Below are positions 1,706 through 47,399 of a stretch of 64,000 nucleotides of DNA, piece by piece. Origin of the DNA: an uncultured bacterium (GTDB lineage: Bacteria > Patescibacteriota > Minisyncoccia > Phycocordibacterales > UBA9973); assembly GCA_937903035.1 (NCBI GenBank), contig CALCZP010000003.1, positions 1,156 to 65,155 on the forward strand, written 5' to 3'. Numbering within the stretch: position 1 is the stretch's first letter; the number at the start of each line of letters is the position of its first letter. The translations under genes were made by a program, and so were the position numbers. Under the pieces are notes generated by a model. It was given only the letters and a program-made list of their open reading frames with translations, did not search any database and had not been told where the DNA came from.

Positions 1706-3499
1706 CTAGCGAATCTCAAAAGATGCATTTTTTTGGACGTTTTCAACAAGTGTTGCAAATGTTTTCTCTACTTCCTCATTCGTGAGTGTCTTGTCCATTG
1801 ATTGAAACACGAGTCGATATGCCACACTCGTGCGTCCGTCTTTGATAAAGGTATCAAGCAGTGTTGGTGGTCTAACACAGTGCTCTGCTGCAAATATACC
1901 AAGCACTTGCTCAAGGTTTTTTTGGTCATCAGAAGCTTTAAGCCATACCGCAATGTCACGTGTGATAAATGGATAGAGTGACCACGGCTTGAATGTGCCA
2001 GCAACTGCAAAGCTGTTCGCAACCGGAGCATGCACCTCAATACTGTGATCAGCGACAAACTGCTCAAGTGATATCTCCTGAATAACACCCCCATCAACAG
2101 TTGCAACATGGAGTATTTCTTGTGGTTCGGCGATGTCTTTTTTCACTGAAAAAACAGTACCGATCTCAAAAAGTTTGATACTCTGTACACCAAGAAGTGC
2201 TGCGTTTGTTTTGTTGAGATCGTAGCTTTCTTTGAGTCCATCAGAGAGATTGGTGCGCAGCGCTGACTTACCTTTCGGACCACGAGCAACTTCGATATCC
2301 CCTTTTGGACGAAACGCATAGGTGAGGACTTCAGAAAATCCCTGTGCAGTGAGATATGCTTTGACTGCACGAATAGCAGCAAATGTTGGATGTGATTCAA
2401 CTGCTGGGGTAAATGGTAATGTCTTTGCCTCAATCGTATCGTAGCCAGTCACACGACCAATCTCCTCTGCGATGTCATGCGCACCAGTGATATCTTGGCG
2501 GTAGTATGGGATGGTAAGTGTAAAATTCTCACCATCTTGGATGTACTCGTAGTTGTATGCGTCAAATACTTTGGCAATATGCGATGCACCGATCGCTAAA
2601 CCGAGGCGTGAAGTGATATCGTTTGTAGTAAATGACAGTGTGCGAGAAGTTTCTGGTGCTGGATAGATATCTTTCACACCAACAACTTCACCTCCAGCAA
2701 TATCCTTGATGAGCGCAACAAGCTGTCCTGCTGCGGGAGCTACAACTTCTGGTGAGAGATTATTTTCAAATCGCTTTGCAGCATCGGTCACAAGATTCAA
2801 TCCTCGCGCGGTCTTGCGTGTTGATGCAGGATCAAAGTTTGCAATTTCAAGAACAATACTCGTCGTATCCTTGGACACTTCTGCGCTCTTGCCACCCTTC
2901 ACACCTGCTATCGCAAGTGCACCGAGATAATCCCCAATGACAATGTTGTCTGACTTGAGCATTTTTTCTTCATCAGAGAGTGTGATGATTTTTTCACTAT
3001 CTTTTGCGGAGCGAACAATAATACCACCGTCAATCTTTGCTCGATCAAATGCGTGCGTAGGCTGCCCGCTATCAAGGAGGACAAAGTTTGTCGCATCGAC
3101 GACATTGTTAATACTGCGCTGTCCTACTGACTCGAGCCTCTCTTTGAGCCATGCCGGTGACGGACCAACTTTTACCCCGTCAATCTGAATGGCAATATAG
3201 CGACGACATACCTCAGTCTTAAGTTCAACTGGAAGTGCGAGCTCTATCGTTGGAAGTTCGTATGATGTTTTTTTGAGTGTGAGATTGAGTAGTCCTGTGA
3301 TCTCGCGCGCAACGCCTATGTGTGAGAGACAGTCTCCTGCACGATCAGGCAATACCTTGATATCCATGACAGTATCGTCGCCATGTGTTTCAACGTCCTC
3401 CACTTCAAATGCATGAAAAATAATTTGCTGCACAAGCTCCTCCAATACAGGAAGCTTTTCTTCGATATGTGTTTGGAGCCAGTTATAGGAAATTTTCAT
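1706..3499 (-). CDS. pheT: Phenylalanine--tRNA ligase beta subunit
   Basis: 597 aa with PheT-like B3/B4, B5 and catalytic-like regions. Lies immediately downstream of pheS on the same strand. Confidence 0.9.
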   Translation of the reverse strand: MKISYNWLQTHIEEKLPVLEELVQQIIFHAFEVEDVETHGDDTVMDIKVLPDRAGDCLSHIGVAREITGLLNLTLKKTSYELPTIELALPVELKTEVCRRYIAIQIDGVKVGPSPAWLKERLESVGQRSINNVVDATNFVLLDSGQPTHAFDRAKIDGGIIVRSAKDSEKIITLSDEEKMLKSDNIVIGDYLGALAIAGVKGGKSAEVSKDTTSIVLEIANFDPASTRKTARGLNLVTDAAKRFENNLSPEVVAPAAGQLVALIKDIAGGEVVGVKDIYPAPETSRTLSFTTNDITSRLGLAIGASHIAKVFDAYNYEYIQDGENFTLTIPYYRQDITGAHDIAEEIGRVTGYDTIEAKTLPFTPAVESHPTFAAIRAVKAYLTAQGFSEVLTYAFRPKGDIEVARGPKGKSALRTNLSDGLKESYDLNKTNAALLGVQSIKLFEIGTVFSVKKDIAEPQEILHVATVDGGVIQEISLEQFVADHSIEVHAPVANSFAVAGTFKPWSLYPFITRDIAVWLKASDDQKNLEQVLGIFAAEHCVRPPTLLDTFIKDGRTSVAYRLVFQSMDKTLTNEEVEKTFATLVENVQKNASFEIR

Positions 3500-3514
3500 C
3501 TATATACCTCTTTA

Positions 3515-4210
3515 TTAAAATTGATTGAACCGGAGATCACCTTGATATGCAAGACGTACATCACTCATACCAAATCTGATCATCATGAGACGATCAAGTC
3601 CCATACCAAATGCAAAGCCGGTGAGCTTCGCATCGTAGCCGACTGATGCAAAGACATTCGGATGCACCATACCTGCACCGCAGACTTCCAGCCATTTTTC
3701 TACGCCATCTTTGACGACTTTTACATCGACTTCAAATCCAGGCTCAACGAATGGAAAGAAGCTTGGACGAAGTCTGATCTCGGTCTCTGCACCAAAAAGC
3801 TCCTTAAAGGATCCAAGCAGTGTTCCCTTGAGATGCTCAACGGTGATTCCCTGGCCGACTACCAACCCTTCGATCTGATGAAATTGCATTTCGTGCGTGG
3901 CATCTGTTGCTTCGTTGCGAAACACTTTGCCGGGAGCAATGATTGCAAACGGCGCTTTGTGCGTTTCCATATAGCGGATCTGCACCGGACTCGTATGTGT
4001 GCGCATCACCTTGCCAGGCATACCCTTGATCCAAAAGGTGTCTTGCATATCGCGTGCCGGATGATCCTTGGGTACGTTGAGTGCATCAAAGTTATGCCAT
4101 TCATCCTCAAGCTCAGGCCCCATTGCGACACTGAACCCTTGCGCAGCAAAAATACGGACGATTTCGTCAGTGACAAGAGTTAACGGGTGTAGTGAGCCAG
4201 TATGTTCCAT
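3515..4210 (-). CDS. pheS: Phenylalanine--tRNA ligase alpha subunit (short form, 231 aa, lacks the N-terminal coiled-coil extension)
   Basis: Class II aaRS core motifs (FRNEATDATHEMQFHQIEGL..., GFAFGMGLDRLMM). Start overlaps the stop of the upstream gene by 1 nt. Confidence 0.9.
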   Translation of the reverse strand: MEHTGSLHPLTLVTDEIVRIFAAQGFSVAMGPELEDEWHNFDALNVPKDHPARDMQDTFWIKGMPGKVMRTHTSPVQIRYMETHKAPFAIIAPGKVFRNEATDATHEMQFHQIEGLVVGQGITVEHLKGTLLGSFKELFGAETEIRLRPSFFPFVEPGFEVDVKVVKDGVEKWLEVCGAGMVHPNVFASVGYDAKLTGFAFGMGLDRLMMIRFGMSDVRLAYQGDLRFNQF

Positions 4211-5166
4211 TATTTTTTGAATACGTTCTGTATCTTATACAAGAAACGCTTGATGAGCGAGCTACTCTTTGGATTTGGTGGACAGCCGTGCGGACAGTGC
4301 GTAAAGCCTTTGGCAGCAATTTGCTTTTGTTCACAATCACCACAGACAATGAACTGCCCATTGCAGCCACGATCACGACAGTCAACAATGCGCTCACTCG
4401 GTGCATCACATCCTGCACATCGTCCCACAATCACATGCTTTGGATCATCGGTATAGAAGCCCATCATGACGCGCCCATCAAAGACATAGAGCTTGCCCTC
4501 GAAGTCTTCGTTCGGATATTTCTCCATATAGGAGACGATACCACCATCAAGTTGATAGACGTCAGTGAAGCCTTGTGTGATGAGGTAGCCACTCGCCTTT
4601 TCACAACGCACCCCTCCAGTACAGACCGTGAGTACAGTTTTGTTTTTGAGATGCTTCAAGCCTTTGGTGATCTTGGGGAGATCGCGAAAGTTATTCATCG
4701 GCGGACAGATGGAGCCTGCAAACTTACCCACTGCATGTTCGTACGCATTTCGCATGTCAACAATATAGAACTCTTTTTTGTCAGCAATCCATTGGTGCAA
4801 ATCCTCTGGTGACAAATGAATCCCTGTAACTTCATTAGGATTCACATCACACACACCGAGATGTGCGGACACAATCTCATCACGCACCTTCACAGAGAGA
4901 CGAGGAAATGCGTCGCCAGTACCCTCACTTTTCTTGTAGTGAATATTGAGGAATCGCTCATCCTTTTCGAGTTCCTTGATGAACGTCTCAGTATTTTCAA
5001 CTGTTCCCTCAAGCGTAAAGTTGAGTCCTTCGGTACCTACGATGAGGCGTCCTTTGAGCTCAAGCTTTTGACAGAGCGCAAAAATATGGTCACGCACCAC
5101 CTGCGGATCACTTATGTGGACATATTTATAAAAGAGAAGGATTTGATACTTCATGACAGAGGTCAC
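4210..5166 (-). CDS. trhO: Rhodanese-domain UPF0176 protein (tRNA U34 hydroxylase TrhO/YceA-like) with Cys-rich C-terminal extension
   Basis: Rhodanese active-site region (TVCTGGVRCEKAS) and UPF0176 N-terminal domain. C-terminal CxxC...CxxC zinc-ribbon-like tail. Confidence 0.7.
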   Translation of the reverse strand: MTSVMKYQILLFYKYVHISDPQVVRDHIFALCQKLELKGRLIVGTEGLNFTLEGTVENTETFIKELEKDERFLNIHYKKSEGTGDAFPRLSVKVRDEIVSAHLGVCDVNPNEVTGIHLSPEDLHQWIADKKEFYIVDMRNAYEHAVGKFAGSICPPMNNFRDLPKITKGLKHLKNKTVLTVCTGGVRCEKASGYLITQGFTDVYQLDGGIVSYMEKYPNEDFEGKLYVFDGRVMMGFYTDDPKHVIVGRCAGCDAPSERIVDCRDRGCNGQFIVCGDCEQKQIAAKGFTHCPHGCPPNPKSSSLIKRFLYKIQNVFKK

Positions 5167-5197
5167 TATAGCGCCAACTGGCTAAAAAATGAAGGGG

Positions 5198-5686
5198 CTA
5201 ACTTTTTAATTCCCTCCGGTGTCTTTGATGAATTTGTACAACATCTCGAAGTGTTGCAACTAGTCGTCCCGCCGCAAATCCTGCAAACATCGCATAGCTC
5301 GTCCCCGATATAACAATCACATCATGAAACTCCGTATCAATGAAATGTTTGGTGACAAACCGAATACAAAGATATATACCCAGAAGCACTACCGCAGCAA
5401 GATCAACACGGCCAAGGGCCACAATTGCCTTTTCTTCATCCCATGATACTTGGGAAAAGAGTTTTGAAAGCACAAGAAGGCCAAGCAGAAATCCGCTACA
5501 CGCAAAGCCAAGCGGTACACCCCACCCGAGTCCACGAAAGAGGATATCAAAGATCGTGAGTGCTCCATAAACAAGTGTTACTAATACGAGAAAATATAGT
5601 CTAAGCCTCAGTTTGAGATGAAGCTTTCCTTTGCGATGAAGATTGCGCACTGTTTCAATATCGATATCAACCTCTGCATTTTCCAT
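5198..5686 (-). CDS. Hypothetical integral membrane protein (4 predicted TM)
   Basis: Hydrophobic segments; no family recognised. Confidence 0.4.
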   Translation of the reverse strand: MENAEVDIDIETVRNLHRKGKLHLKLRLRLYFLVLVTLVYGALTIFDILFRGLGWGVPLGFACSGFLLGLLVLSKLFSQVSWDEEKAIVALGRVDLAAVVLLGIYLCIRFVTKHFIDTEFHDVIVISGTSYAMFAGFAAGRLVATLRDVVQIHQRHRRELKS

Positions 5687-5713
5687 GGGCGAACTATACC
5701 GTCTTTGTCACGA

Positions 5714-7456
5714 CTACGCACGCTCACCTACCTGCTGACGCCACATCGCAAAGTAAAGCCCCTTTTGCGCTAGCAACTCCTCATGTGTTCCTGACTCGCT
5801 CATTGTACCCTTCTCAAGTACATAGATACGATCAGCATGCATGATCGTTGAGAGTCGATGCGCAATGAGTATTGTGATGCGCTCATTTGTTGCAGAGACT
5901 TCTTTGATTGTTTTACTGATTTCTTCTTCGGTCAGACTATCAAGCGCACTTGTCGCTTCATCAAATACGAGAATATTTGGATTGCGAAGGAGTGCTCGGG
6001 CGATTGAGATACGCTGTTTTTCACCACCTGAAACTTTAACCCCACCTTCTCCGATGACAGTATCTAGCTCTTGACCACCACGCTCAAGCAAATTTTGACA
6101 TTGTGCTTTTTGAAGTGCATCGAGACATTCCTCATCAGTTGCAGCAGGGTTCACAAATAACAAATTTTCACGAATCGTTCCAGAAAATAGCTGCGTATCC
6201 TGAGTCACAAACCCTATTTGTTTGCGAAGCTCATCCTTGTTTATATCATCGTACGGAATGTTGTTGTACAAGATGGTACCTTCTGTTGGCTCATAGAGAC
6301 CAACCAACAATTTCACCAAAGACGTCTTGCCAGACCCTGATGGACCAACAAATGCAATCGTTTCTCCCTGCTTAACGTTATAACTAATAGTAGTAAGTGC
6401 TTGTGTTTGTGCAGATGTATATCCAAACGACACCTCCTTGAATGCAAGCTCTGTCACCTCTCCTACGTGCTTTGGATTAGTCGCACGAGGCTCAGGTTTG
6501 GTATCCATAAGCGTCTGATAGTTTGCAAGTGATGCTTCTGCCTGACGATACGTCGCAATATAGCCCGCGATTTGGGTAAGTGGGAAAAACAAGTAGAACG
6601 AATAGATATTGAGAGAGAAATACTGCCCAAGGGTAATCGTGCGCGTAAAGATCATATAGAACAGGAAGAGGTAGATTGCTGCTCGAATAAAGTTTGTGAC
6701 TGTACCCTGAATAAAGTCTAATGTCCGCACATATTTAAGCTTCTTGAGTTCGAGTTTCAATATCTTTTCAGTTGTGGTATTGAGTCTAGCAACTTCTTGA
6801 CCTGTGAGCCCGAGAGATTTCACGAGCTCAATATTACGAAGTGACTCGGTCGTTGATCCAGCGAGCGCGGTCGTCTCTGCAACAATCAACATCTGCACTG
6901 TTTTGATTTTTTTTGAAAAGACGAGCGTGATCGTGCCAATAATGATCACCATCGCTCCATAGATTACAGGGATTGCCCAGTACACGGTTGCCGCATACAC
7001 CATTACGAAGACAAGAATAATCCCCGAGAGAAAGAGCACATTAATCGTATCTTGAATCAGTTTTTCAGTGTCTTGTCGAGCTTTCTGGAGCTTACCGAGT
7101 GTTTCCCCACTTCGCTCGTCTTCAAACAATGCATACGGGAGACCAAGTGAATGCTCAACACCAGCACTGTACATATCTGCCCCACTTCGCTGACTGACGC
7201 GATTGAGATAGTAGTCTTGGAAATTTTTTGCAACACGAGAAACAAATGCAGTTCCTATGAATACCAACAAAAGGCCGATTGTTCCTTGCAGAAATGCTGA
7301 GCGTGTGAGCACGTCATATCTGAGCGCATAGGTATCAATGATGCGCTGATAGATGAGTGGCTCGACGAGTGAGAACACTTGGTTGATGATGGCAAGTACC
7401 ACCACAAGAGTGCACATCTTCCAATATTTACGGAGATATTGTTGGAGAATTTGCAT
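5714..7456 (-). CDS. ABC transporter, fused permease/ATP-binding protein (MsbA/exporter type)
   Basis: Six-TM N-terminal domain. Walker A GPSGSGKTS, ABC signature VSGGEKQRISIARA, Walker B ILVFDEATSALD. Confidence 0.85.
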   Translation of the reverse strand: MQILQQYLRKYWKMCTLVVVLAIINQVFSLVEPLIYQRIIDTYALRYDVLTRSAFLQGTIGLLLVFIGTAFVSRVAKNFQDYYLNRVSQRSGADMYSAGVEHSLGLPYALFEDERSGETLGKLQKARQDTEKLIQDTINVLFLSGIILVFVMVYAATVYWAIPVIYGAMVIIIGTITLVFSKKIKTVQMLIVAETTALAGSTTESLRNIELVKSLGLTGQEVARLNTTTEKILKLELKKLKYVRTLDFIQGTVTNFIRAAIYLFLFYMIFTRTITLGQYFSLNIYSFYLFFPLTQIAGYIATYRQAEASLANYQTLMDTKPEPRATNPKHVGEVTELAFKEVSFGYTSAQTQALTTISYNVKQGETIAFVGPSGSGKTSLVKLLVGLYEPTEGTILYNNIPYDDINKDELRKQIGFVTQDTQLFSGTIRENLLFVNPAATDEECLDALQKAQCQNLLERGGQELDTVIGEGGVKVSGGEKQRISIARALLRNPNILVFDEATSALDSLTEEEISKTIKEVSATNERITILIAHRLSTIMHADRIYVLEKGTMSESGTHEELLAQKGLYFAMWRQQVGERA

Positions 7457-7459
7457 AGA

Positions 7460-7954
7460 CTACTGTGCAGGCATGTCCATACCACCCCAAAGATTCGCGG
7501 TCCCAAGTGCGGTATTGCCAGATGACTTGATATAGAGGAAGAGCTGCATCTTGTACGCCGCGAGCCATTTGAGAAGATTTTCAACAAGGTATCGTCCTTT
7601 TGACATTTCCCCCATCCCATAGATATTGATCACCTTGGCAAGCTCTTCATCAGTAAAGAGCTCCATAGTCGCCTTGAAATCTGCGAGCTGCTTGTCCATC
7701 ATGTCAGCAAAGTTTGAAAGTGTGGTTGGCTCAGTTGGTTGAGGCAGTGTCTTGTACGCGTCAGTCGTCCCCGCAAGAATAACCTTAGTTGCATTTACAA
7801 AGACTTCTGAGAGGTACTGCAATAGCTCGCTTGTCGTCCGCTGCCCGTCAGTAGGCTTGTAGCCCTCGGTGTCAGCGGGGATTTTGGTCGCCAAGTGCTT
7901 GATAATACGGAATTCGTTGCTGACTGAGTCAATAAGGTCTTGTTTGGTGTACAT
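7460..7954 (-). CDS. Hypothetical protein (164 aa), possibly a DinB-like helical bundle
   Basis: ORF co-directional with the ABC exporter. Weak resemblance only. Confidence 0.35.
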   Translation of the reverse strand: MYTKQDLIDSVSNEFRIIKHLATKIPADTEGYKPTDGQRTTSELLQYLSEVFVNATKVILAGTTDAYKTLPQPTEPTTLSNFADMMDKQLADFKATMELFTDEELAKVINIYGMGEMSKGRYLVENLLKWLAAYKMQLFLYIKSSGNTALGTANLWGGMDMPAQ

Positions 7955-8046
7955 ATATATGATGATTGGCTGCTAGTGCCGCAAGTATAGCTGATATGCT
8001 ACGATGACACCAAACATATTCTTTTCACCTCAAAAACATAAAAACT

Positions 8047-9111
8047 ATGGCAAAAGCATTGGTTAAGTTTAGTATCAAAGATGACTTCTTTGACGAACTT
8101 CGTTTAGAAGTGAAAAATTATTTCACTTCTAATAAAATCGCAATAACCGGAGATTATCGTTTACATCTAAAAACAGCGATATTACTAACGCTTGCAATTG
8201 CAACGTATACTCATTTGGTATTCTACACGCCACCACTATGGCCAGCATTGATTGAATGTATTTTTCTCGGCACCTTATTTGTATCAATCGGATTCAATGT
8301 GATGCATGATGCATCACATGGAAGTTATTCCTCCAAACCCTGGGTGAATGAACTTATGGTACTTACTGCTGAGATGATGGGTGCTAGTTCTTTTTTGTGG
8401 ATTAAAAAGCATGATGGTATTCATCATATTCTTACTAACACTGAACATGACGACGATCTTCAAGCGGGTAAGGTTATGCGAATGCATCCTAGTCAAAAAC
8501 GATTATGGATCCATCGATATCAACATATATATGCATGGTTTGCGTATATGTTGTTGTATCTCAATTGGATTTGGATCAATGATTTCAACAAATATATCTT
8601 TCGTAAAATACATACGACTGAAATAAAAGAAGTTAAAAGATCAGACCATATCAAATTTTTGTCAGGCAAAGTATTCCATGGAGTATTTATGATTTGGATT
8701 CCGTGGCATCGTCTTGGTTTCACTTCATGGCTCATTGGATATCTTTCCTTTGCATTTGCTCTCGGACTTATCATGAGTGTTGTGTTCCAACTTGCTCACG
8801 TAGTAGAAAAAAGTACTTTCCCTACTTCAGAAAATGGAAGAATTATCTCTCCTACATGGGCAAGAATACAAATTCTGGAAACATGCGATTTTAGTACGAA
8901 GAATAAAGTTCTAACTTGGCTCCTTGGAGGATTAAACTTTCAAGTAATTCATCATTTATTCAGAGATATTAGCCATGTTCATTATCCTGCAATACAGCCT
9001 ATAGTGAAAAGAAAGTGTGAGAAGTATCAAATACCTTACACTGAACTACCTATTCTCTTTGCGATAAAATCACATTTCCGAGTAATTAAAACACTCGGAC
9101 AAGAAGCCTGA
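8047..9111 (+). CDS. Membrane fatty-acid desaturase (front-end/sphingolipid-type His-box desaturase)
   Basis: Three histidine boxes (HDASHG; HDGIHHILTNTEHDDD; QVIHHLF) and four TM segments. The gene is very AT-rich. Confidence 0.8.
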   Translation: MAKALVKFSIKDDFFDELRLEVKNYFTSNKIAITGDYRLHLKTAILLTLAIATYTHLVFYTPPLWPALIECIFLGTLFVSIGFNVMHDASHGSYSSKPWVNELMVLTAEMMGASSFLWIKKHDGIHHILTNTEHDDDLQAGKVMRMHPSQKRLWIHRYQHIYAWFAYMLLYLNWIWINDFNKYIFRKIHTTEIKEVKRSDHIKFLSGKVFHGVFMIWIPWHRLGFTSWLIGYLSFAFALGLIMSVVFQLAHVVEKSTFPTSENGRIISPTWARIQILETCDFSTKNKVLTWLLGGLNFQVIHHLFRDISHVHYPAIQPIVKRKCEKYQIPYTELPILFAIKSHFRVIKTLGQEA

Positions 9112-9128
9112 AAAGGCTTCTTTTTTTA
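9103..9128 (+). terminator. Rho-independent terminator of the desaturase gene
   Basis: Hairpin gaagcc-tgaaaa-ggcttc followed by T7. Confidence 0.6.
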
Positions 9129-9164
9129 TATAAAACTGTAAGTACATCAAAATAATTTAGAGAG

Positions 9165-9695
9165 TTATTCTTTATTCTCCGCCCACTCATTAGCCAGTCG
9201 TGCAGTCTCTTGAAGAAACGTAAATTTCCCTGGACGGTATGATAAATAATCATCAGGATGCTCGATCTTCAATTTTTCTTTCAAAGCACTATATTGCCCT
9301 GCCCGTTCTGAATGAGTTCGAAGATAATCTCTCACATTGATGAACTGTTTAATCCGTGGAGCACCTGTTTCAAATACATGAATATTCTCAATCTTTTCAG
9401 TACCCACTATTTTCTCAAATAACACTGAGCGCTCATCTAAAACATTTTCTCTTAAAATATATCCGGTAGAAATCATCTCTTCTTTTACTCTCTCAAGACT
9501 CGTAATATTCTCAACTATTACCAAGACATCAATAAGAGGTTTTGCTTTCATACCCACAACTGAAGTACTCCCTACATGCTCAATAGACAACGCCATTGTT
9601 CCAAAAACTTCTTCAAGTACTTTTTTAATAGTATTAAATTTTGTAACCCAGTCGGGATTATAAGGCTCGATGGAGTAAGTTCTTTCAGAATTCAT
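9165..9695 (-). CDS. GrpB-family protein (UPF0157, nucleotidyltransferase-like)
   Basis: Motif EHVGSTSVVGMKAKPLIDVLVIVENI. The track ORF extends to 9788 across tRNA-His, so the start was trimmed to the internal ATG (MNSERTYSIEPYNPDWV). Confidence 0.65.
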   Translation of the reverse strand: MNSERTYSIEPYNPDWVTKFNTIKKVLEEVFGTMALSIEHVGSTSVVGMKAKPLIDVLVIVENITSLERVKEEMISTGYILRENVLDERSVLFEKIVGTEKIENIHVFETGAPRIKQFINVRDYLRTHSERAGQYSALKEKLKIEHPDDYLSYRPGKFTFLQETARLANEWAENKE

Positions 9696-19026: not shown

Positions 19027-19116
19027 GGAGGCGTGGCAGAGTGGTCGATTGCACCTGTCTTGAAAACAGGAGTCCTCGTAAGGGGACCGTGAGTTCGAAT
19101 CTCACCGCCTCCGCCA
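19027..19116 (+). tRNA. tRNA-Ser (anticodon TGA), CCA encoded
   Basis: Acceptor GGAGGCG/CGCCTCC, anticodon stem-loop CCTGT-CTTGAAA-ACAGG, long variable arm, T-loop TTCGAAT, 3' GCCA. Confidence 0.9.
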
Positions 19117-19148
19117 TTAACAGGTAGCACGACATGCTATCTGAAATA

Positions 19149-19190
19149 GGTAAACAAAAAGAGCGGATATCCGCTCTTTTTGTTTACCTA
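19149..19190. terminator. Perfect 42-nt palindrome; bidirectional intrinsic terminator between tRNA-Ser and the minus-strand operon
   Basis: aggtaaacaaaaagagcggatat|atatccgctctttttgtttacct is a perfect inverted repeat with U-runs on both strands. It overlaps the stop of the DHH gene. Confidence 0.6.
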
Positions 19191-20111
19191 TTCAAGCTCC
19201 TGTTTTAGAAGTGGGACTATTTGCTTCCGCATAATTAGATTCGGTCTTTCTGCGACAGTACCCTCAAATTTAACATCGAGGACTTTCTCCAATAGACTCT
19301 TTGTAGCTTCATCTTCGGCGACAAAGAAGTTCCTACTATCTTCAAGCTCTATGGTGTTCTGGAAAATATAATCTAAGCTCATTTCACTTTTTATTTTATT
19401 GAGAACTTTCACGATATCTTGATCTCGTTCAGTTACCAGTTTTCTTGCGCCAATGATTTCGATTTGAGCAATACCGACTTTTTTGTCTCCCATTACAAAC
19501 CATGCAAAATCTCCCTCGATTCTTTCAGCTAGTTTTGCTCCTGAAAGATCAGATTTTGCTTCAAATAGTTCTTTCCAGAAAATGTCTGGCAACTGGGCTG
19601 TTTCATTTAAATACTCAGCAACCTTTCTATCTCGATCGGTGGTTACTCCACCTTTAAAGTTCAAGGTGTTTGAGATAACTGCTCCATAGAGCAATACTGC
19701 CGATTCTTTTGAAATAGGAGTATTTGTCTCCATAAACTTCTCAGCGATAAGACTTGCAGCAGCCCCGACAAGTTCTATTTGAACTTTTGCATTGGGAAAT
19801 TTATCAGCCTCGTGTATTTTTCTGTGATCAATGATCTCAATTACTTTCTCGGGTGCGATCTTACCCTCGATACCATTCAGATCGCTTGCATCAACGAGTA
19901 TCACTTCATCAAAGTCGTCTGCGTTTGGTATTGATTGAGGATATGCAAAATTATAACGATCGAGGATGTATTTAACTTCATCGTGAGGTTCTCCAATAAT
20001 TCCGACAACAGCATTCTTGCCGATCTTTTGTAAATATTCTGCATAGGCAATAGCACCAGCAACGCCGTCTAAGTCAGGATTTACATAGCAAGTGACAAGG
20101 ATAGGTTTCAT
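19188..20111 (-). CDS. DHH-family phosphoesterase, most like family II (Mn-dependent) inorganic pyrophosphatase
   Basis: N-terminus KPILVTCYVNPDLDGVAGAIAYAEYL matches the DHH motif region of PpaC/NrnA-type enzymes. 307 aa with a DHHA2-like C-terminus. Confidence 0.55.
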   Translation of the reverse strand: MKPILVTCYVNPDLDGVAGAIAYAEYLQKIGKNAVVGIIGEPHDEVKYILDRYNFAYPQSIPNADDFDEVILVDASDLNGIEGKIAPEKVIEIIDHRKIHEADKFPNAKVQIELVGAAASLIAEKFMETNTPISKESAVLLYGAVISNTLNFKGGVTTDRDRKVAEYLNETAQLPDIFWKELFEAKSDLSGAKLAERIEGDFAWFVMGDKKVGIAQIEIIGARKLVTERDQDIVKVLNKIKSEMSLDYIFQNTIELEDSRNFFVAEDEATKSLLEKVLDVKFEGTVAERPNLIMRKQIVPLLKQELE

Positions 20112-20115
20112 AAAC

Positions 20116-20805
20116 TTATTTGGTGGGTCGCTTAATTATTAAATCAATTTCAGGACTTTCAGATTTTAAATTAGCTATGACTTTCTCTACAACAGTTCCA
20201 ACTTCCATATAATCCTTAAGATCATCAGGATACTTTTCTTTATAAATATCTGTTTGCATACCACCAGGGAATATTCCGTAAACTTTGATATCCGTATCTT
20301 GAATTTCCTTGCGGATAGATTCAGTTAAACCTTTGATCGCAAACTTAGACGAAGCGTAGGCAGATATGCCTTGCTTACCATCAAGTCCAGCTGTTGAGTT
20401 TATATTTATAATTGCGCCGTTTCCTTGGCTTTTCATTTGGGTAAGAGCTACCTGGCATCCATAGAAATAACCAAAGAAATTTATATCAAACAAGTGATGT
20501 AATTTCTGAATATCAACTTCTTCTACCAAACTAGGAGCAATCTGAATTCCTGCATTATTTATCCAACAATCGATCTTTCCGTATTTCTTTACCGCGTAGT
20601 CAGATAAATTCTTAATATCCTCAAAAGAGGTTACGTCAGCAAGAAAATGATCAACAGCCAATTCTTGTGCTGTTGCTTCTAAATGTTCTATTTCATGACT
20701 GGAGATAATAACCCGAGCGTTTTCATTTTTAAATGCCTCAGCAAGTGCCTTGCCAAAACCCTGACTTCCGCCTGTTACTATAATTACCTTATCTTGAATC
20801 TTCAT
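20116..20805 (-). CDS. SDR-family short-chain dehydrogenase/reductase
   Basis: Rossmann motif IIVTGGSQGFGKALA and catalytic YxxxK (YASSKFAIK). Confidence 0.8.
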   Translation of the reverse strand: MKIQDKVIIVTGGSQGFGKALAEAFKNENARVIISSHEIEHLEATAQELAVDHFLADVTSFEDIKNLSDYAVKKYGKIDCWINNAGIQIAPSLVEEVDIQKLHHLFDINFFGYFYGCQVALTQMKSQGNGAIININSTAGLDGKQGISAYASSKFAIKGLTESIRKEIQDTDIKVYGIFPGGMQTDIYKEKYPDDLKDYMEVGTVVEKVIANLKSESPEIDLIIKRPTK

Positions 20806-20829
20806 AAGCCCATTTTATCATTTTTGAAC

Positions 20830-22149
20830 TTATTTCTCTAGACTGATCTTCTTCTGGCTCAACAATATCTTGCTCTTCAAACAACCGAGCATTTCTCGTT
20901 TTTCAAGATTCGATCCCTCTTTCAAAACGTACTTTGCATATCCTCGAATATCGATACTTGGAATATCAATCTTTTCCTTTGTTCCAAGGAGGAATTTTTG
21001 CAGTTTGGAGAATCGTTCAACATCAGCTTTTATTCTTTCCTTAACTTCGATCTCATTCAGATTGATTTTGTTGATCAGTTCCTCAAATTGTTTTAAGATT
21101 TCTTTCTCTTCGGTATAGCCACATTTGCAATCAGCACCTCGGGCTTTGGTGCATCCGTAATAGACATATCTTTGAACCGTTCCATTTTTATACTTCTTGA
21201 ATTTCTCATCGGCAGATATACCAGATCCGCAAAGTCCGCAGACCATCATCTTTGTGAAAGCGAATTCTTTGCCCTCGACTCGCAACACCTGACTTTTTAT
21301 TTGTTCTTGTACGAGGGTAAACAATTCTTTGGTGATAATCGGCTCGTGTTTTCCTGTATACCAGTTACCCGAACTGCGAGGATATTCAAATACGCCATAG
21401 TAGAAAGTGTTATCTAAAATTCTGTAGATATTCCCAAGGCTCAAATGTTTCTTTCCGTAAGCGCTTCTGAAGTTGAGATTGAATCTGAGCCAGTTGTATA
21501 TCTTTCTTCCGCTCCAATGCTCGTAGGCGACTTTCTCAAATATCTTCTTGATAGTCGGCGCCCGTTCTGGATCGATAAGCGTTTCGCATTTCCGATCTGT
21601 GCGTTTTTCTTTCATGTATCCAGTCGGAGCAGGACCAGGCCATAATCCCATCTCGACTCTGGTTCTCAAACCTCGCTTCACATTGATACTCTTATTGTCA
21701 TTTTCGAGCTTAGCTTGTGAACACAAAATCATCAAAAGGAATTTCTCGTTCGGTGAGTTTTTGAATTGCTGTCCATAGGTACGAATCTCCATAAGCAACT
21801 GTTGATCCATAAGATCGACGATTGAACCAAGGTCACCTGCGTTACGAGAAAGTCGATCAGGTGCCCAAGTTAGAATCCCATTAAACCGTCCTCGTCGTAC
21901 ATCCTCCAAGATTTCCTTATAGACAGGTCGTTGTCCTGATTCTTTTGCACTATGAGATTCTCTTCGTATCTCTACAACTTCCAAACCATCTCGTTCGGCA
22001 AGTTCAAGCATTTCCTTAATCTGAGAATCAATTGAAAGCACTTGTCGTTCTTCTGATTCGGTAGATTTTCGAGCATATAGTACATATTTTATTTTTTGTA
22101 CTGGTGCTATGACCTCCTTACCAATCCTGGCTGTGGTGTATGTTTCCAT
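20830..22149 (-). CDS. Large serine recombinase (resolvase/integrase family with recombinase and zinc-ribbon domains)
   Basis: N-terminal catalytic domain (YVLYARKSTESEERQVLSIDSQ...), central recombinase domain, Cys-rich zinc ribbon (CGLCGSG...CTKARGADCKCGY), coiled-coil tail. Confidence 0.8.
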   Translation of the reverse strand: METYTTARIGKEVIAPVQKIKYVLYARKSTESEERQVLSIDSQIKEMLELAERDGLEVVEIRRESHSAKESGQRPVYKEILEDVRRGRFNGILTWAPDRLSRNAGDLGSIVDLMDQQLLMEIRTYGQQFKNSPNEKFLLMILCSQAKLENDNKSINVKRGLRTRVEMGLWPGPAPTGYMKEKRTDRKCETLIDPERAPTIKKIFEKVAYEHWSGRKIYNWLRFNLNFRSAYGKKHLSLGNIYRILDNTFYYGVFEYPRSSGNWYTGKHEPIITKELFTLVQEQIKSQVLRVEGKEFAFTKMMVCGLCGSGISADEKFKKYKNGTVQRYVYYGCTKARGADCKCGYTEEKEILKQFEELINKINLNEIEVKERIKADVERFSKLQKFLLGTKEKIDIPSIDIRGYAKYVLKEGSNLEKREMLGCLKSKILLSQKKISLEK

Positions 22150-22178
22150 GTATTAATTAATGACAGACCAGTTGGTGG

Positions 22179-22192
22179 TGCATAGCTATGCA
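22179..22192. promoter_or_regulatory. Perfect 14-bp palindrome tgcatagctatgca between the recombinase and the ABC operon (candidate operator)
   Basis: Read directly from the sequence. Lies ~50 nt upstream of the predicted ABC-operon promoter. Confidence 0.35.
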
Positions 22193-22227
22193 GAACTAGA
22201 AATGCGTCGCATACTCGCAGGCTAGGC

Positions 22228-22256
22228 TTAGCAAAAAAATAAAATATGGTATAATT
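22228..22256 (+). promoter_or_regulatory. Sigma70-like promoter of the ABC transporter operon
   Basis: -35 ttagca, 17-nt spacer, extended -10 tggtataat. Lies ~40 nt upstream of the SBP start. Confidence 0.5.
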
Positions 22257-22293
22257 TGATCGTATAAAATTATTAGTTTAACTTAGAAAATAC

Positions 22294-23121
22294 ATGAACA
22301 AATACGGGAATTTAATTATAGGCGCATTGGCAATAGTTGCATTAATTGTTGGCTTTTCCGCACTAAGACAAAACAACAGTCAGTCGGTTGCGGACAAAGT
22401 AGTCGACCGTGGGGAAATTCGAATTGGGTACATTGTTTACCCACCACTTCTGTACAAAGACGAAGCAACAGGAAAATTGTCAGGTGTTTCCTATGATCTC
22501 GTAGAAGCGGCGGCAGCTAAGTTAAACCTCAAAACAAACTGGGTTGAAGAAGTAGGCTGGGGTTCTGCTATCGAAGGACTCAAAACCAAGCGCTATGATA
22601 TTCTCGGAACTCAAATGTGGCCAAACTCTGCGCGAGCGCGGGAAGCAGTATTTTCTATCGCACCATTCAATAGTGTTATTTATCCGTATGTAAAAGCGGG
22701 CGATACTCGATTTGAGGGTAACCTTGCAAAGTTAAACTCGAATCAGTACACGATCAGTGCTGTTGACGGAGAAATGGCAACATTTATTGCAGCACAAGAT
22801 TATCCAAACGCAAAAATGAATGCATTGCCACAACTTACTTCATACGCAGAGGTGTTGCTAAATATCGTAAATGGAAAAGCTGATATTGGTTTCATTGAAC
22901 CGTCTACTGCCAATGACTTCTTAAAAACAAATCCTGGGAAAATTGTTCGCGTTGGAACCACCCCTGTTCGCACATTTGGAAATAGCTTTGCATTTGCGCG
23001 TGGTCAGGAATCCATGGTTTCAATGTGGAATGTTGCGATCGGCGAACTTATCAACGATGGAACCGTAACGCGAACGCTAGAAAAATATGGCGTTGCTAGA
23101 GACTACACGTTGAACAAATAA
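22294..23121 (+). CDS. ABC transporter substrate-binding protein, family 3 (polar amino-acid type), membrane-anchored
   Basis: N-terminal anchor and SBP_bac_3-like fold. First gene of an SBP-permease-ATPase operon. Confidence 0.75.
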   Translation: MNKYGNLIIGALAIVALIVGFSALRQNNSQSVADKVVDRGEIRIGYIVYPPLLYKDEATGKLSGVSYDLVEAAAAKLNLKTNWVEEVGWGSAIEGLKTKRYDILGTQMWPNSARAREAVFSIAPFNSVIYPYVKAGDTRFEGNLAKLNSNQYTISAVDGEMATFIAAQDYPNAKMNALPQLTSYAEVLLNIVNGKADIGFIEPSTANDFLKTNPGKIVRVGTTPVRTFGNSFAFARGQESMVSMWNVAIGELINDGTVTRTLEKYGVARDYTLNK

Positions 23122-23129
23122 TAATCATT

Positions 23130-23783
23130 ATGTTTCAAGTTTTGATTCAATATCATCACTTGTTGCTACAAGGATTTCTGACAACCTTGAAACTTCTTGG
23201 ATGCATCATGCTTATCGGGGTTCCGTTTGGAACCCTTTTAGGCGTGATAGGAGGAAGATACAGTTTTGAGGTTGGAAAAGTGGTAAAAGTTGCTCGTTTT
23301 ATTACTAAAGTTATCCCTGTTCTTGTGCTCTTATTCTGGCTTCATTATCCCTTACAAGGCATGCTTGGTATCGTGATAGATCCATTCTGGACAACAATTT
23401 TTGCTCTCGGACTTATTAATATCATCGCAGTTGCTAATATTGTGACAAGCGAACTGGAACTACTCCCGAAATCATATCGTGAAGCAGGAATCACACTTGG
23501 TATGTCTAAAAATCAAATAGTGAAACATATCGAAATTCCATTGCTTGTAAGAAGGACTCTCCCTCAATTGTTACTTACTCAAGCCGCAATGCTCGAATAT
23601 ACTCTGTTTGCAAGTCTTATTTCAGTACCAGAATTATTTCGTACGGCGCAAACTATCAATGCGATGATTTATAAACCTGTAGAAATTTATTCGCTTCTCG
23701 TCTTGTTCTTCTTGATCATTCTTGCACCGCTCCATTTGCTTATTTCATGGTTGCAGAAAAGATATATCGCAGAATATGCTTAA
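23130..23783 (+). CDS. Amino-acid ABC transporter permease (HisM/GlnP family)
   Basis: Five TM helices and an EAA-like loop (MSKNQIVKHIEIPLLVRRTLPQL). Confidence 0.8.
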   Translation: MFQVLIQYHHLLLQGFLTTLKLLGCIMLIGVPFGTLLGVIGGRYSFEVGKVVKVARFITKVIPVLVLLFWLHYPLQGMLGIVIDPFWTTIFALGLINIIAVANIVTSELELLPKSYREAGITLGMSKNQIVKHIEIPLLVRRTLPQLLLTQAAMLEYTLFASLISVPELFRTAQTINAMIYKPVEIYSLLVLFFLIILAPLHLLISWLQKRYIAEYA

Positions 23784-24897
23784 AATTACTCACGCTACAA
23801 AAAAATATACTGATACCGTGGATATTCGTGGAATTAACGATGTATCTTTTTCTATTTCGAGCGGAGAAATTGTATGTGTATTAGGACAAAGCGGCTCAGG
23901 AAAAAGTACATTACTTCGGGTACTTGCAGAACTTGAAACACTAGATAAAGGCACAGTATCAGTAAATGGAAATGCTCTTGCAAGTTATGTATCCCAAGAT
24001 TATACTCTCTGGCCTCACTTAACGGTTTTGGAAAATCTTACGCTTGCACCAAAACTAAAATCAATTGGTAAAGAAAAAAATATTGCAGAGGAAGCCAAAA
24101 AGCTATTACACCGTTTCGGTTTGGAAGATTATGCAAATAACTATCCATCAGAATTGTCTGGCGGACAAAGGCAAAGAGTTGCGCTTTTGCGAGCAATAAT
24201 GATCAAGCCAAAAATACTTTTGCTCGACGAAATAACATCCGCTCTTGATCCAGAACTCACAAAAAGCGTACTCGATCTTATACGAGCTTTAGCAAAGGAC
24301 GGTTATACGATGATTATCGTCACACACCACATGTCCTTCGCTATGTCCGTAGCTGATCGGATAATCTTTCTCAAGAATGGCTCTATTTTACAAGACGAGA
24401 AAATGATCCAATTTTTCACAGCGCAATCTAATCCAGAAATTCAATCCTTCATCCTCGATATTGCAAAACGCGATGAGTCAATCGAAGTTTTCAAGGGTCT
24501 TGAGCAGTTCCAAGCATATCATCTGGGACTTATGAAAAGATTGCCAGAAAATTCTACAATCTATGTGGCTGGGGCTGTCGGGGATGCCTGGTATAGTCCA
24601 ATGGGTGAATTTTATAAACACTACGAAGATTTGAGAATCAAAAAGCATATTGCATGGAAAATGGTAACCTACGATCAAGGGGAAACTGATCGAAGATTAG
24701 TAAAAGATTTCCCAGAGCTTAATCAGTTCCGCAGTATGCCAAGAAATATTCAAAACCCTGCCAACTATAATGTTTTTGGAGATACCGTTATTACGCAGAT
24801 TTTCGAGAACGAGCCAACCATTATTCAAATAAAAAATCAGTCAATTGCGGATGCATACATGAGATTTTTTGAAGAATTATGGAATGCCGGAAAATAA
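23776..24897 (+). CDS. Amino-acid ABC transporter ATP-binding protein with a ~130-aa C-terminal extension of unknown function
   Basis: Walker A GQSGSGKST, signature LSGGQRQRVALLRA, Walker B LLLDEITSALD, H-loop. Start set at MLKITHATKKY, overlapping the permease stop by 8 nt. Confidence 0.85.
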   Translation: MLKITHATKKYTDTVDIRGINDVSFSISSGEIVCVLGQSGSGKSTLLRVLAELETLDKGTVSVNGNALASYVSQDYTLWPHLTVLENLTLAPKLKSIGKEKNIAEEAKKLLHRFGLEDYANNYPSELSGGQRQRVALLRAIMIKPKILLLDEITSALDPELTKSVLDLIRALAKDGYTMIIVTHHMSFAMSVADRIIFLKNGSILQDEKMIQFFTAQSNPEIQSFILDIAKRDESIEVFKGLEQFQAYHLGLMKRLPENSTIYVAGAVGDAWYSPMGEFYKHYEDLRIKKHIAWKMVTYDQGETDRRLVKDFPELNQFRSMPRNIQNPANYNVFGDTVITQIFENEPTIIQIKNQSIADAYMRFFEELWNAGK

Positions 24898-24920
24898 TTA
24901 TCAATTTAAATCCAAAAAAC

Positions 24921-25634
24921 ATGACAACAAATAACAATTTTTCAGATACTTTAGTCGAGGAATATGATCTTTTTGGAAAAGTGTTTCCTTTTCATGACGA
25001 CTTGCAAAATACGATTCCTGAATCATTGAAAGAACATTTTGCAGGTGAAACTAATGGGGGGGCTTCACTCAACTTTCTTGATATTGGAGCTGGATACGGT
25101 TTTACAACAAAATTAGTTGCAAAGGAATTTCCAAAGGCACATTTTATCCTTAATGAATACGATTCTGAACTTATCAGCCGAGCCGATGCTTACTTAAGTG
25201 ATTATAGTCATGAGAAAAAAGTTGGCGATATAGAAGAAATAATAAAAGCGATCCCAGATCAGTCGATTGATGGGGTTTATACCGCATGGGTTATACACAA
25301 TTTTCCTCCAAATAAACGCGAAGTGATCTATCGCGAAATTTCCCGCGTCTTAAAACCAGGAGGTGTATTTGTTGCATTAGAAAAAGTTGGAAATACTGGT
25401 GAGCAGAGATTGAAAGACCTTTCACAGTCAATCGTTGATTTGTATCCTTTTGTCACAAAGTACAACAGACCCGACTTGTTTATTGAATGGGTTAAGCACG
25501 ATCTAAGAGATGAAGATATGGATTTAGTCTTTACGGATGATGAAAACAAAAAACTCCTCGACGAGAATAATTTTGATTGGAAATACATCAAACATATTTT
25601 ATTGGAGAAAGTTGTCGTGGCTGTTAAAAACTAA
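24921..25634 (+). CDS. Class I SAM-dependent methyltransferase
   Basis: Motif I LDIGAGYGFTT and motif post-II VLKPGGVFV. AT-rich. Start trimmed to the internal ATG. Confidence 0.65.
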   Translation: MTTNNNFSDTLVEEYDLFGKVFPFHDDLQNTIPESLKEHFAGETNGGASLNFLDIGAGYGFTTKLVAKEFPKAHFILNEYDSELISRADAYLSDYSHEKKVGDIEEIIKAIPDQSIDGVYTAWVIHNFPPNKREVIYREISRVLKPGGVFVALEKVGNTGEQRLKDLSQSIVDLYPFVTKYNRPDLFIEWVKHDLRDEDMDLVFTDDENKKLLDENNFDWKYIKHILLEKVVVAVKN

Positions 25635-25639
25635 ATAAA

Positions 25640-25677
25640 AAAAGACCTCGTGATCTACGAGGTCTTTTTCTGTTTTA
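25640..25677 (+). terminator. Rho-independent terminator ending the ABC/methyltransferase operon
   Basis: gacctcgt-gatc-tacgaggtc followed by tttttctgtttt. Confidence 0.7.
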
Positions 25678-25785
25678 ACTTGTCTCAAAAATAGTTACAG
25701 TGCCTTGTAACAAAACACCTCAAGTACTGTCACTTTTGTCACTTTTTGGTACGCTCGAGACGCGTCGATTTTAAATCTGAAAAAA

Positions 25786-25794
25786 TGCTAAAAT
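25786..25794 (+). promoter_or_regulatory. Extended -10 element (TGcTAAAAT) upstream of mscL
   Basis: tgctaaaat lies ~50 nt before the mscL start. Confidence 0.4.
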
Positions 25795-25845
25795 AGCCTT
25801 ACAGGGCTTGTCGGGGTTTAGTTCTAACACGACGCTCTCCGCAAA

Positions 25846-26190
25846 ATGGATGAACTTCGAGCAAAAGCAAAAGAGCGTATGAAAGCCCGCGTTGGTGGAT
25901 TCGCCGACTTTATTCGTGAACAAGGTGTTATTGGACTTGCGATCGGTTTTATTCTTGGAGGAGCAGTATCCAAGACGGTCACTTCCCTCGTCGACAATAT
26001 TATCAACCCACTTGTCGGCATCATGCTTGGCAAGGTTGACCTCAAAGACAAGGTACTCACCGTAGATCACACTATTATTCACTACGGCGCATTCATCTCA
26101 AGTATTGTCGACTTCATCATTGTGGCAGCGGTCATCTACTTTGTATTCAAAGGACTTAGACTCGATCGTATCGATAAAAAGAACGTGTAG
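25846..26190 (+). CDS. mscL: Large-conductance mechanosensitive channel
   Basis: FADFIREQGVIGLAIGFILGGAVSKTVTSLVDNIINPLVG matches the MscL TM1/periplasmic-loop consensus. Confidence 0.85.
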   Translation: MDELRAKAKERMKARVGGFADFIREQGVIGLAIGFILGGAVSKTVTSLVDNIINPLVGIMLGKVDLKDKVLTVDHTIIHYGAFISSIVDFIIVAAVIYFVFKGLRLDRIDKKNV

Positions 26191-44999: not shown

Positions 45000-45008
45000 A
45001 TACTGAGA

Positions 45009-45923: not shown

Positions 45924-46161
45924 TCTACCACGGAGGTTTCCTTATATACTGCCATGCAACAAAAAACCATTCTCGTCATCTTTTACAAATTACCTAGATA
46001 GAGGTAGGATGCCGTCATATGGAAACGGTCGAAAAAATCCTTCTAAGTATTGGTAACTTTATCTTTTTTATCTTTTTAACCCTTCTTTTCTTACCTTCTT
46101 TTTTGATCGTAACCTATCTTGAAGGGGTATGGAAAAAGAAGCTTGGAGAGGTATTTGGACT

Positions 46162-47379: not shown

Positions 47380-47399
47380 TATTTTCTTATGATGTACCT

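Follow-up and report, generated by a model that had tools for sequence, protein, structure and literature searches.

The DNA analyzed here is a 64,000-nucleotide stretch of contig CALCZP010000003.1 from an uncultured bacterium of the candidate phyla radiation (CPR, Patescibacteria), hereafter called the window. The segment at positions 19115–25842 (6,728 bp) is very probably an integrated genomic island belonging to a large family of serine recombinase elements in Paceibacteria. As in integrative islands, the segment is present or absent at a collinear site among host relatives, and it has its own integrase and defined ends beside a tRNA gene. An initial annotation had placed a recombinase-bearing island at 19117–25700; the island itself is real, while its right boundary lies at 25842, approximately 140 bp further out. 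Islands of this kind, namely tRNA-associated integrative islands, are already known. The family behind this one is not described in the searched literature on CPR, Patescibacteria, or Parcubacteria, where no account of such serine recombinase islands was found.

Insertion site and island ends

Host relatives were retrieved by a search with the flanking PilM protein (88, 81, 70, and 66% identity), and the gene contexts were read for those with 81% (L095), 70% (the P0125 genome), and 66% (L096). The three contexts are collinear, with PEMT-DsbB-Trx-FUR-SpoU-RuvA-S20-152aa-MscL on one side of the site and tRNA-Ser(tga)-RuvX-tRNA_bind-PilM/N/O on the other. Each of them lacks the seven island genes altogether. 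Conserved synteny of the whole block in relatives had been named as the finding that would speak against insertion, and the opposite is seen, the flanks being kept and the island genes missing in all three. This absence at the collinear site supports the island reading. In L095, the closest of the three, MscL is located 107 nt from tRNA-Ser(UGA). The window tRNA-Ser is the same as the L095 tRNA up to ...CACCGCCTCCGC (...CCTCCGC) and diverges beyond it. The identical arrangement of the island is found in eight contigs from independent samples, indicating that the island is not an assembly chimera. A metagenome scan with PilM for close host relatives gave one short contig only (52% identity).

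The gap between tRNA-Ser and MscL is a general insertion hotspot. It holds an open reading frame (ORF) of 179 aa with no family match in L096 (8405–8944) and an HNH-like ORF of 154 aa in the P0125 genome. In L133, whose host is a remoter relative of the window host than L095 (MscL identity, 70% versus 88%), a related island sits in this same part of the chromosome, beside MscL. The GC content of the window island is 0.36–0.42, compared with 0.45–0.47 in both flanks. This contrast is weak evidence, since other parts of the window are equally low. The region around 45000–56000, for example, has a GC content of 0.35–0.40, as low as the island or lower.

The integration target, tRNA-Ser(UGA) (19027–19116, plus strand), was identified with both ARAGORN and Rfam, as the initial annotation had it. 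The left junction is formed by the 3′ end of this tRNA (...CTCCGC, 19109–19114), and CTCCGC is found again at the right junction (25837–25842). The junctions share only these approximately 6 bp, and a search within the window for long direct repeats flanking the island gave only chance-level matches. The element side of the left end (attL; 19115–19144, plus strand), defined by sequence comparison, reads CA-TTAACAGGTAGCACGACATGCTATCTG and includes the T motif, the core of which (GCACGACATGC) is at 19127–19137.

Next to the left end is a perfect palindrome of 48 nt (19145–19192) that overlaps the stop codon of the DHH protein gene and folds with −35 kcal/mol on both strands (z −10.7 and −9.9). 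It is probably a bidirectional terminator that separates tRNA-Ser from the island transcription. A perfect palindromic terminator of 42 nt had been proposed at 32 nt from the tRNA; the perfect palindrome holds, with the length corrected to 48 nt and the start to 28 nt past the tRNA. A homologous hairpin occupies the same place in L010 and L014, though the adjoining cargo differs. Two Logan contigs of the same strain (L003 and L005) stop approximately 25 bp past the DHH stop codon, inside the palindrome. These ends are probably assembler breaks at the palindrome and give no sign of population heterogeneity.

The sequence following the tRNA is shared with distant loci. Between CCA and the end of the first hairpin arm, a single base separates the window trailer from that in L014, where it follows a different tRNA-Ser. 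The L014 host is unrelated and its cargo is different, and the DNA in common with the window is limited to the recombinase gene with approximately 90 bp upstream, a block at the right end, and the tRNA trailer. These same three pieces are the only ones shared in the DNA comparison of the window with distant loci. Most tRNAs facing a recombinase are directly followed by a motif of the class ..TCGTG-mTAG-CACGAGA.. or ..ACAGGTAGCACGAC.., and unlinked tRNAs have plain trailers of the CCGC/AAA type without the left-end motif (slashes mark junctions here and below). The tRNAs facing a recombinase are tRNA-Ser (five anticodon calls), tRNA-Trp, tRNA-Gln, or tRNA-Glu, with Ser in close relatives and Trp, Gln, and Glu in more distant ones. 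ARAGORN also called a tRNA-Ser with the anticodon ACT (loop TTACTAA) at 3540–3627 of L014, as well as in L010, L025, L043, L063, L093, and L111. The ACU anticodon is unusual in bacteria. This tRNA-Ser(act) recurs as the island-adjoining tRNA, usually beside tRNA-Ser(gct).

The right-end block (attR side; 25671–25842, plus strand) was delimited by an nhmmer profile and alignment. It contains an inverted repeat GTTACAG..TTGTAAC (25694–25711), TGTCACTTTTGTCACTTTTT (25728–25747), K1 CGCTCGAGACGCGTCG (25752–25767), a predicted outward promoter-like site TGCTAAAAT facing mscL (25786–25794), CCTTACAGGGCTTG (25797–25810), and K2 with a mimic of the tRNA 3′ end, AGTTCTAACACGACG-CTCTCCGC (25820–25842). 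The block is approximately 170 bp long and non-coding. It is found upstream of the recombinase, in one orientation, in 43 of the 93 loci examined with the profile (L001–L093). The part at 25728–25747 (GTGTCACTTTTGTCACTTTTT in all copies) consists of two GTCACTTTT repeats one helical turn apart and is the most conserved stretch of the block, with approximately 99% column identity among 24 copies. The paired GTCACTTTT repeats may be an operator or a site for an accessory protein.

The outer edge of the block should be noted. In the 24 aligned copies with outer flanks, conservation runs through ...GGTTCTAACACGAG-N5-CCGC (CACGAG-N5-CCGC) and halts exactly there. Beyond CCGC, the copies usually continue with A-rich sequence resembling the trailer of a native tRNA. 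In L012, L026, and L043, a second element begins there with its left end, indicating tandem element arrays. When the last 28 nt of the block are compared with the T-arm and acceptor of the tRNA, 16 positions match (counted by eye), including GTTC.AA and CTCCGC. The block is 95% identical to that of L133 over 115 nt, compared with 78–81% for the genes. Compact loci have approximately 70 bp between the block and the recombinase start. Where cargo is present, as in the window, the alignment puts it at a single shared breakpoint, with the block on one side and the promoter region of the recombinase on the other. The order of block, recombinase, motif, and tRNA is constant wherever these parts are found. 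A known RNA was rejected as the identity of the block, as Rfam gave only tRNAs at the gathering level and noise at E values up to 1, and the block shows no excess RNA folding (z −0.35 and −1.3). Since neither an RNA family nor excess structure was found, the block is treated as a DNA-level site.

Both ends carry related motifs. GCWCGASAYGC has two matches in the 64 kb, one per island end, against 0.14 expected. Three copies of TA(A/G)CACGA(G/C), all pointing the same way, lie 11–19 nt inside the left junction, 10–18 nt inside the right junction, and approximately 85 nt inside the right end. Attachment-site-like features had been anticipated at about 19117–19190 and 25640–25850. They are present, in that GCWCGASAYGC is found at each end and both ends recur beside homologous recombinases in unrelated genomes.

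Recombinase and gene content

The recombinase gene (20830–22149, minus strand) encodes a presumed integrase of 439 aa. The Pfam matches, which for all island proteins are above the curated cut-offs, are Resolvase PF00239 (75.2 bits, cut-off 23.3; residues 23–168), Recombinase PF07508 (52.8 bits, cut-off 21.1), and Zn_ribbon_recom PF13408 (31.0 bits, cut-off 25.3). The translation contains the serine-bearing motif YARKSTESEERQ. The class had been left to a profile search. This gave phage-type integrase phrog_95 with an E value of 9e-62 and invertase phrog_125 with 1.4e-21, placing the protein outside the small resolvases and invertases. The 439-aa protein is thus classified from its sequence as a large serine recombinase (LSR) of the phage integrase type. 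The nearest relative with a solved structure is SPbeta SprA/YokA (E value, 1.7e-14). The best NCBIfam match is CcrB at 123 bits (cut-off 900), followed by CcrC at 47.5 bits (cut-off 900) and CcrA at 44.8 bits (cut-off 700).

Thousands of homologues of the recombinase were found, and its relatives are present in at least 569 species-representative genomes, nearly all of Patescibacteria/Paceibacteria. The window copy and the L014 copy are 98.4% identical in protein and 86.8% in DNA, with a synonymous divergence (dS) of 1.0 and a ratio of nonsynonymous to synonymous divergence (dN/dS) of 0.02. The L009 and L010 copies are approximately 90% identical to it in protein at a dS of 2–3. The identity to the L010 copy is 91%, while the PilM proteins of the two hosts are only 22% identical. 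Recent horizontal transfer was considered as the cause of the approximately 90% identity across lineages and was rejected, as nucleotide identity is 76–87% and synonymous sites are at or near saturation. Judging from the dN/dS of approximately 0.02 at a dS of at least 1, the recombinase is under extreme purifying selection, and its high identity stems from this strong selection on a gene moved between distant hosts. Two paralogous recombinases with approximately 64–70% identity to that of the window are found in single genomes (L015/L054, L024/L056, and L017/L065). The L015/L054 and L024/L056 paralogues face tRNA-Ser and tRNA-Gln, and L017 faces tRNA-Ser while no tRNA was found for L065. This observation suggests subfamilies with different target specificity.

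The island had been described as headed by the recombinase, which in fact sits in its middle. The order on the minus strand of the DHH/DHHA2 protein gene (19188–20111; Pfam), the short-chain dehydrogenase/reductase (SDR) gene (20116–20805; adh_short, 178 bits), and the recombinase gene, with gaps of 4 and 24 nt, is as first described, and the proposed operon is read from this spacing. The DNA upstream of the recombinase (22150–22236, minus strand) is conserved, with approximately 80% identity to L009, L010, and L014, and is presumably promoter or regulatory DNA. Just beyond it, compact loci and those with cargo part ways. A strong promoter had been proposed for the transporter genes on the plus strand. 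The best promoter-like site of the region is indeed at 22228–22255 (TTAGCA-16-TGgTATAAT; 10/12 consensus, extended −10) and is the only such site with TG on the plus strand near the start of the binding protein gene; promoter activity is predicted here from the sequence.

The plus-strand cassette consists of genes for a family-3 solute-binding protein of the amino acid type (22294–23121; SBP_bac_3, 69 bits), an ATP-binding cassette (ABC) permease of the GlnP/HisM type (23130–23783; BPD_transp_1), a GlnQ-like ABC ATPase of 373 aa (23776–24897; ABC_tran, 112 bits), and a class I S-adenosylmethionine (SAM) methyltransferase of 237 aa (24921–25634; Methyltransf_11 and Methyltransf_25). The starts of the ATPase (ATG at 23776) and methyltransferase (24921) genes are those of the gene caller, and the longest ORFs begin elsewhere. 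The strong terminator expected at the end of this arm is found as a hairpin at 25639–25669 (−18 kcal/mol, z −8). The methyltransferase gene, singled out earlier as AT-rich, is not notably more so than the remaining island. The host gene mscL (25846–26190, plus strand; MscL in Pfam, 88% identity to L095 MscL) abuts the island and lies outside it.

The proposal of a complete polar amino acid ABC importer holds at the family level for all three parts, as seen in the Pfam, NCBIfam, and PDB matches. The binding protein weakly matches cystine, Lys/Arg/Orn, and ectoine binders in NCBIfam, and its PDB matches are amino acid binders. The permease matches GlnP (67.5 bits) and HEQRo_perm_3TM (38 bits, cut-off 42.2), and residues 2–227 of the ATPase match GlnQ (204 bits). 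All equivalog matches of the transporter are far below the cut-offs (GlnQ, 204 versus 379; cystine-binding protein, 49.5 versus 312). The C-terminal extension of the ATPase (approximately 140 aa; 24481–24897) has no match in Pfam or PDB even at E values up to 10. The full ATPase architecture including this domain is, however, widespread across CPR lineages in the ATPase search. P0260 (606 aa) and P0321 (621 aa) combine the ATPase and the methyltransferase in a single protein, and the two genes adjoin in L133, L134, and L136. Such fusion and adjacency tie the methyltransferase functionally to the transporter, suggesting that both may act on the same substrate. On the minus strand, the DHH protein matches family II (Mn-dependent) inorganic pyrophosphatase over its full length (NF003877; 190.9 bits, residues 2–306 of 308), below the equivalog cut-off of 283, and the SDR has no NCBIfam equivalog at cut-off.

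Related islands and known systems

Eighteen islands of the family were delimited at both ends and are 2.6–18.7 kb long. The cargo was surveyed by the top families of their 136 ORFs. The census includes CBASS cyclases and Cap15 effectors (four each), ThsB (four ORFs), S24 repressors (six ORFs), restriction-modification (R-M) enzymes, P-type metal ATPases, HlyD efflux parts, and MarR regulators. The cargo is wholly different even between recombinases that are 98% identical. A module of a ParB-fused N6 methyltransferase, TerS, and TerL is located directly upstream of the recombinase in approximately 37 of 80 genome loci and in most loci of the viral collection. The terminase large subunit matches phrog_38 with an E value of 7e-79. 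Many relatives also have a CI-like or S24-type repressor. No capsid, portal, or tail gene was found among the top families of the 136 census ORFs or in the interval between TerL and the recombinase in L110, and a full prophage was rejected on these grounds. Terminase genes without capsid genes suggest transfer by hijacking a helper phage. The family thus looks like phage-satellite-type islands plus stripped derivatives of them.

Several individual loci should be described. L110, a contig of the viral collection, has a diversity-generating retroelement (bAvd and reverse transcriptase) and a type III R-M pair at 3607–9661, in the 8 kb between TerL and the recombinase. L014 contains at 2807–3627 a mini-element with no recombinase, consisting of tRNA-Ser(act), the left-end motif, a gene for an ART-PolyVal ADP-ribosyltransferase, K1, and the distal half of the block, with the breakpoint exactly at the K1 motif edge. 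L100 has TerS at both ends and was considered as a circular excised form; this was rejected, since its ends are 93% identical repeats of a tandem pair.

The DHH, SDR, binding protein, permease, and methyltransferase genes do not recur in other loci retrieved by the recombinase search. The transporter cassette is found without a recombinase in ordinary chromosomal contexts in L135 and L136. The cassette of binding protein, permease, ATPase, and methyltransferase is a chromosomal module of CPR. In L133/L134, the same cassette (81% nucleotide identity; ATPase, 96% amino acid identity) is located between a recombinase with 89% identity and an intact TerL-TerS-methyltransferase module. The cargo downstream of the recombinase is a metallo-β-lactamase-fold gene in L133 versus the SDR and family II pyrophosphatase-like genes in the window. 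Pfam detected no repressor, terminase, replication, virion structural, or lysis gene in the window island. From this comparison of sequences, the window island is best read as a stripped derivative that would have lost approximately 4 kb of packaging genes.

Among known systems, the architecture comes closest to that of the staphylococcal cassette chromosome (SCC) elements such as SCCmec with CcrAB or CcrC. In both, the recombinase is in the middle of the element with variable cargo on both sides, and the element inserts at the very 3′ end of a conserved housekeeping gene, which is left intact. Short direct repeats at the junctions, tandem composite arrays, mini-elements without a recombinase, the lack of own transfer genes, and the best NCBIfam match to CcrB are further likenesses. 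However, with 123 bits against a cut-off of 900, the recombinase is not a Ccr orthologue, and there is one recombinase gene rather than a ccrA/ccrB pair. The target here is the 3′ end of tRNA-Ser instead of rlmH (orfX), the host belongs to CPR, and many relatives have terminase genes.

The recombinase shares with the large serine integrases of temperate phages (SPbeta SprA, Bxb1, phiC31, TP901-1, and A118) the resolvase catalytic domain, the recombinase domain, and the zinc ribbon with coiled-coil. The phrog_95 match, the closest structure (SprA/YokA), and the location of relatives beside terS and terL are further points in common. The similarity is remote, though (E value to SprA, 1.7e-14), and 439 aa is at the short end of the class. 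The targets of phage large serine integrases are mostly protein-coding genes, whereas those of the window family are tRNA 3′ ends. The family has no known directionality factor, and no capsid or tail gene is found in the islands examined.

Relatives, but not the window copy, are similar to phage-inducible chromosomal islands (PICIs) in their size (10–19 kb), integrase with a CI/S24-type repressor, terS/terL without a virion module, and defence cargo. The window island, lacking repressor, terminase, and replication genes, does not classify as a phage satellite. Classical PICIs have tyrosine integrases and genes for a primase-replicase and capsid redirection; the latter two kinds of genes were not detected here. 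The tRNA islands of the Islander/TIGER type are similar in that they target a tRNA 3′ end, carry a copy or mimic of that end, are present in some genomes and absent from others, accrete in tandem, and have a lower GC content. They differ in that the recombinase here is a serine and not a tyrosine recombinase, and that the junction repeat is approximately 6 bp (CTCCGC), not tens of bp. The crossover here also appears to be at or after tRNA position 74, so that the tRNA would not be rebuilt from element DNA. As for the cargo, the cassette has the family-3 binding protein, GlnP/HisM-type permease, and GlnQ-type ATPase of GlnHPQ, HisJQMP, and Art transporters. It differs from them in that no equivalog cut-off is reached, the permease gene is single, and the ATPase has the C-terminal domain of approximately 140 aa and is coupled or fused to the SAM methyltransferase.

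Alternative readings, proposed mechanism, and significance

Several observations weigh against an integrated, site-specific island. The site in L095 is not pristine: at 8738–8843 there is a remnant of approximately 80 bp that looks like the fusion of a left with a right island end, together with a promoter-like part, and has CCTCCGC repeats on either side and then another left-end-like CATTAGCAGATAG. This remnant blurs the exact crossover. The end motifs are direct repeats, whereas a serine recombinase dimer would be expected to use inverted half-sites. The analysis identified no recombination directionality factor, and the minimal islands have no common partner gene. Two exact junction patterns for the excised circle (attP) had no match in IMG/VR viral contigs. 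Even the closest copies have reached or nearly reached saturation at synonymous sites, and no recent transfer is documented. The window copy, without a repressor and the terminase module, may be immobile.

The last point bears on a domesticated element, which would have arrived as an island and become fixed, with the recombinase retained to serve the host, for example in regulated excision or in controlling tRNA-Ser and mscL. A dN/dS of approximately 0.02 is a value more usual in housekeeping genes than in integrases, and the missing directionality factor and the eight occupied samples with no empty one agree with fixation. So does the gene content of the window copy, which lacks the repressor, TerS, and TerL that L133 and roughly half of the family possess. 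Nevertheless, the two ends are intact and, in the comparison with L133, better conserved than the genes (95% versus 78–81%), and the nearest host relative read has no island. Close copies of the recombinase are found at different tRNA genes in unrelated hosts, and tandem arrays exist. Immobilization of this kind is rather unlikely. Also doubtful, and considerably more so, is an ordinary chromosomal region with an ancient, vertically inherited recombinase, the block being ancestral and deleted in L095, L096, and the P0125 genome. The related island beside MscL in the remoter relative L133, the remnant in L095 that looks as if an island had been lost, and the synonymous saturation would fit such a history. 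Against it, the recombinase and the ends are found together at different tRNAs with unrelated neighbors in hosts whose PilM is 22% identical, and some genomes have two paralogues or tandem copies. A site-shaped scar after loss is, moreover, what site-specific excision would leave.

Integron-like capture of cassettes is improbable to a similar degree. Here, recombination would occur at the inner T and K1 (core GCWCGAGAYG), cassettes without a recombinase would be exchanged in trans, and the tRNA-proximal and distal approximately 110 bp would be a resident landing pad. The model predicts a T × K1 product ...AACAGGTAGCACGA/GACGCGTCGATTTT... The mini-element of L014 fits the model, as its single ART-PolyVal gene is bracketed exactly by T-type and K1-type sites with the distal half-block next to it and no recombinase inside. 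The L095 spacer resembles a fusion of T-left and K1-right plus a promoter-like part, and the cargo is entirely different between 98% identical recombinases. On the other hand, the distal block and the 10 nt between the tRNA and T travel with the recombinase across unrelated hosts and are absent from native trailers. The sequence outside K1 and T is therefore element DNA and not a host landing pad. The cargo between the block and the recombinase starts at a breakpoint that is neither T nor K1, and only one such mini-cassette was found. A T × K1 crossover was also dropped as a model of the outer boundaries, since the sequence outside the motifs travels with the recombinase and stops exactly at ...CCGC.

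For an integrated island, we infer the following mechanism. The 439-aa recombinase would act as the integrase on a circular element, catalyzing recombination between attP, formed by the two joined ends, and attB at the extreme 3′ end of tRNA-Ser(UGA), ...CTCCGC/AAA. The predicted attP junction is ...CTCTCCGC/CATTAACAGG..., that is, ...GTTCTAACACGACGCTCTCCGC/CATTAACAGGTAGCACGAC..., and the predicted empty attB junction is tRNA-Ser ...CACCGCCTCCGC/AAAATGGATGAAC... Integration would leave an intact tRNA followed by the left end of the element, in which the motif and the 48-nt bidirectional terminator would insulate the tRNA. On the far side would be the approximately 170-bp block, ending in the T-arm/acceptor mimic (...GTTCTAACACGACGCTCTCCGC), with the outward promoter-like TGCTAAAAT directed toward the displaced mscL. 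Cargo would occupy hotspots on both sides of the recombinase, the transporter module on one side and the SDR and pyrophosphatase-like genes on the other. The window copy may still excise and probably cannot package itself.

A wider proposition can be made tentatively, at somewhat less than even confidence, for the lineage-wide family (at least 569 species genomes). An unusually conserved LSR would target tRNA 3′ ends (Ser, Trp, Gln, and Glu) via an attP arm mimicking the T-arm and acceptor, and its islands would range from 2.6-kb minimal units through stripped cargo islands to capsid-less terS/terL satellites. The family could be a main vehicle for the acquisition and exchange of defence systems and accessory metabolism in Paceibacteria. 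T, K1, and K2 may be accessory directionality sites, and three such motifs in the same orientation would represent a new organization of att sites for serine integrases.

CPR bacteria (Patescibacteria) have tiny genomes with few described mobile elements, and no genetic tools were available for them until recently. An insertion polymorphism whose ends are defined gives direct evidence on how CPR cells acquire accessory functions, in this case an importer of the amino acid type with its coupled methyltransferase. As the recombinase family is elsewhere accompanied by CBASS, Thoeris, R-M, a diversity-generating retroelement, and metal resistance, it marks the locations of defence islands in CPR. 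Members with terminase genes, in which no capsid gene was found where checked, may represent the first candidates for phage satellites in CPR. A conserved serine integrase with a predictable attB at tRNA 3′ ends could also become a tool for inserting DNA into CPR genomes, if its activity is confirmed.

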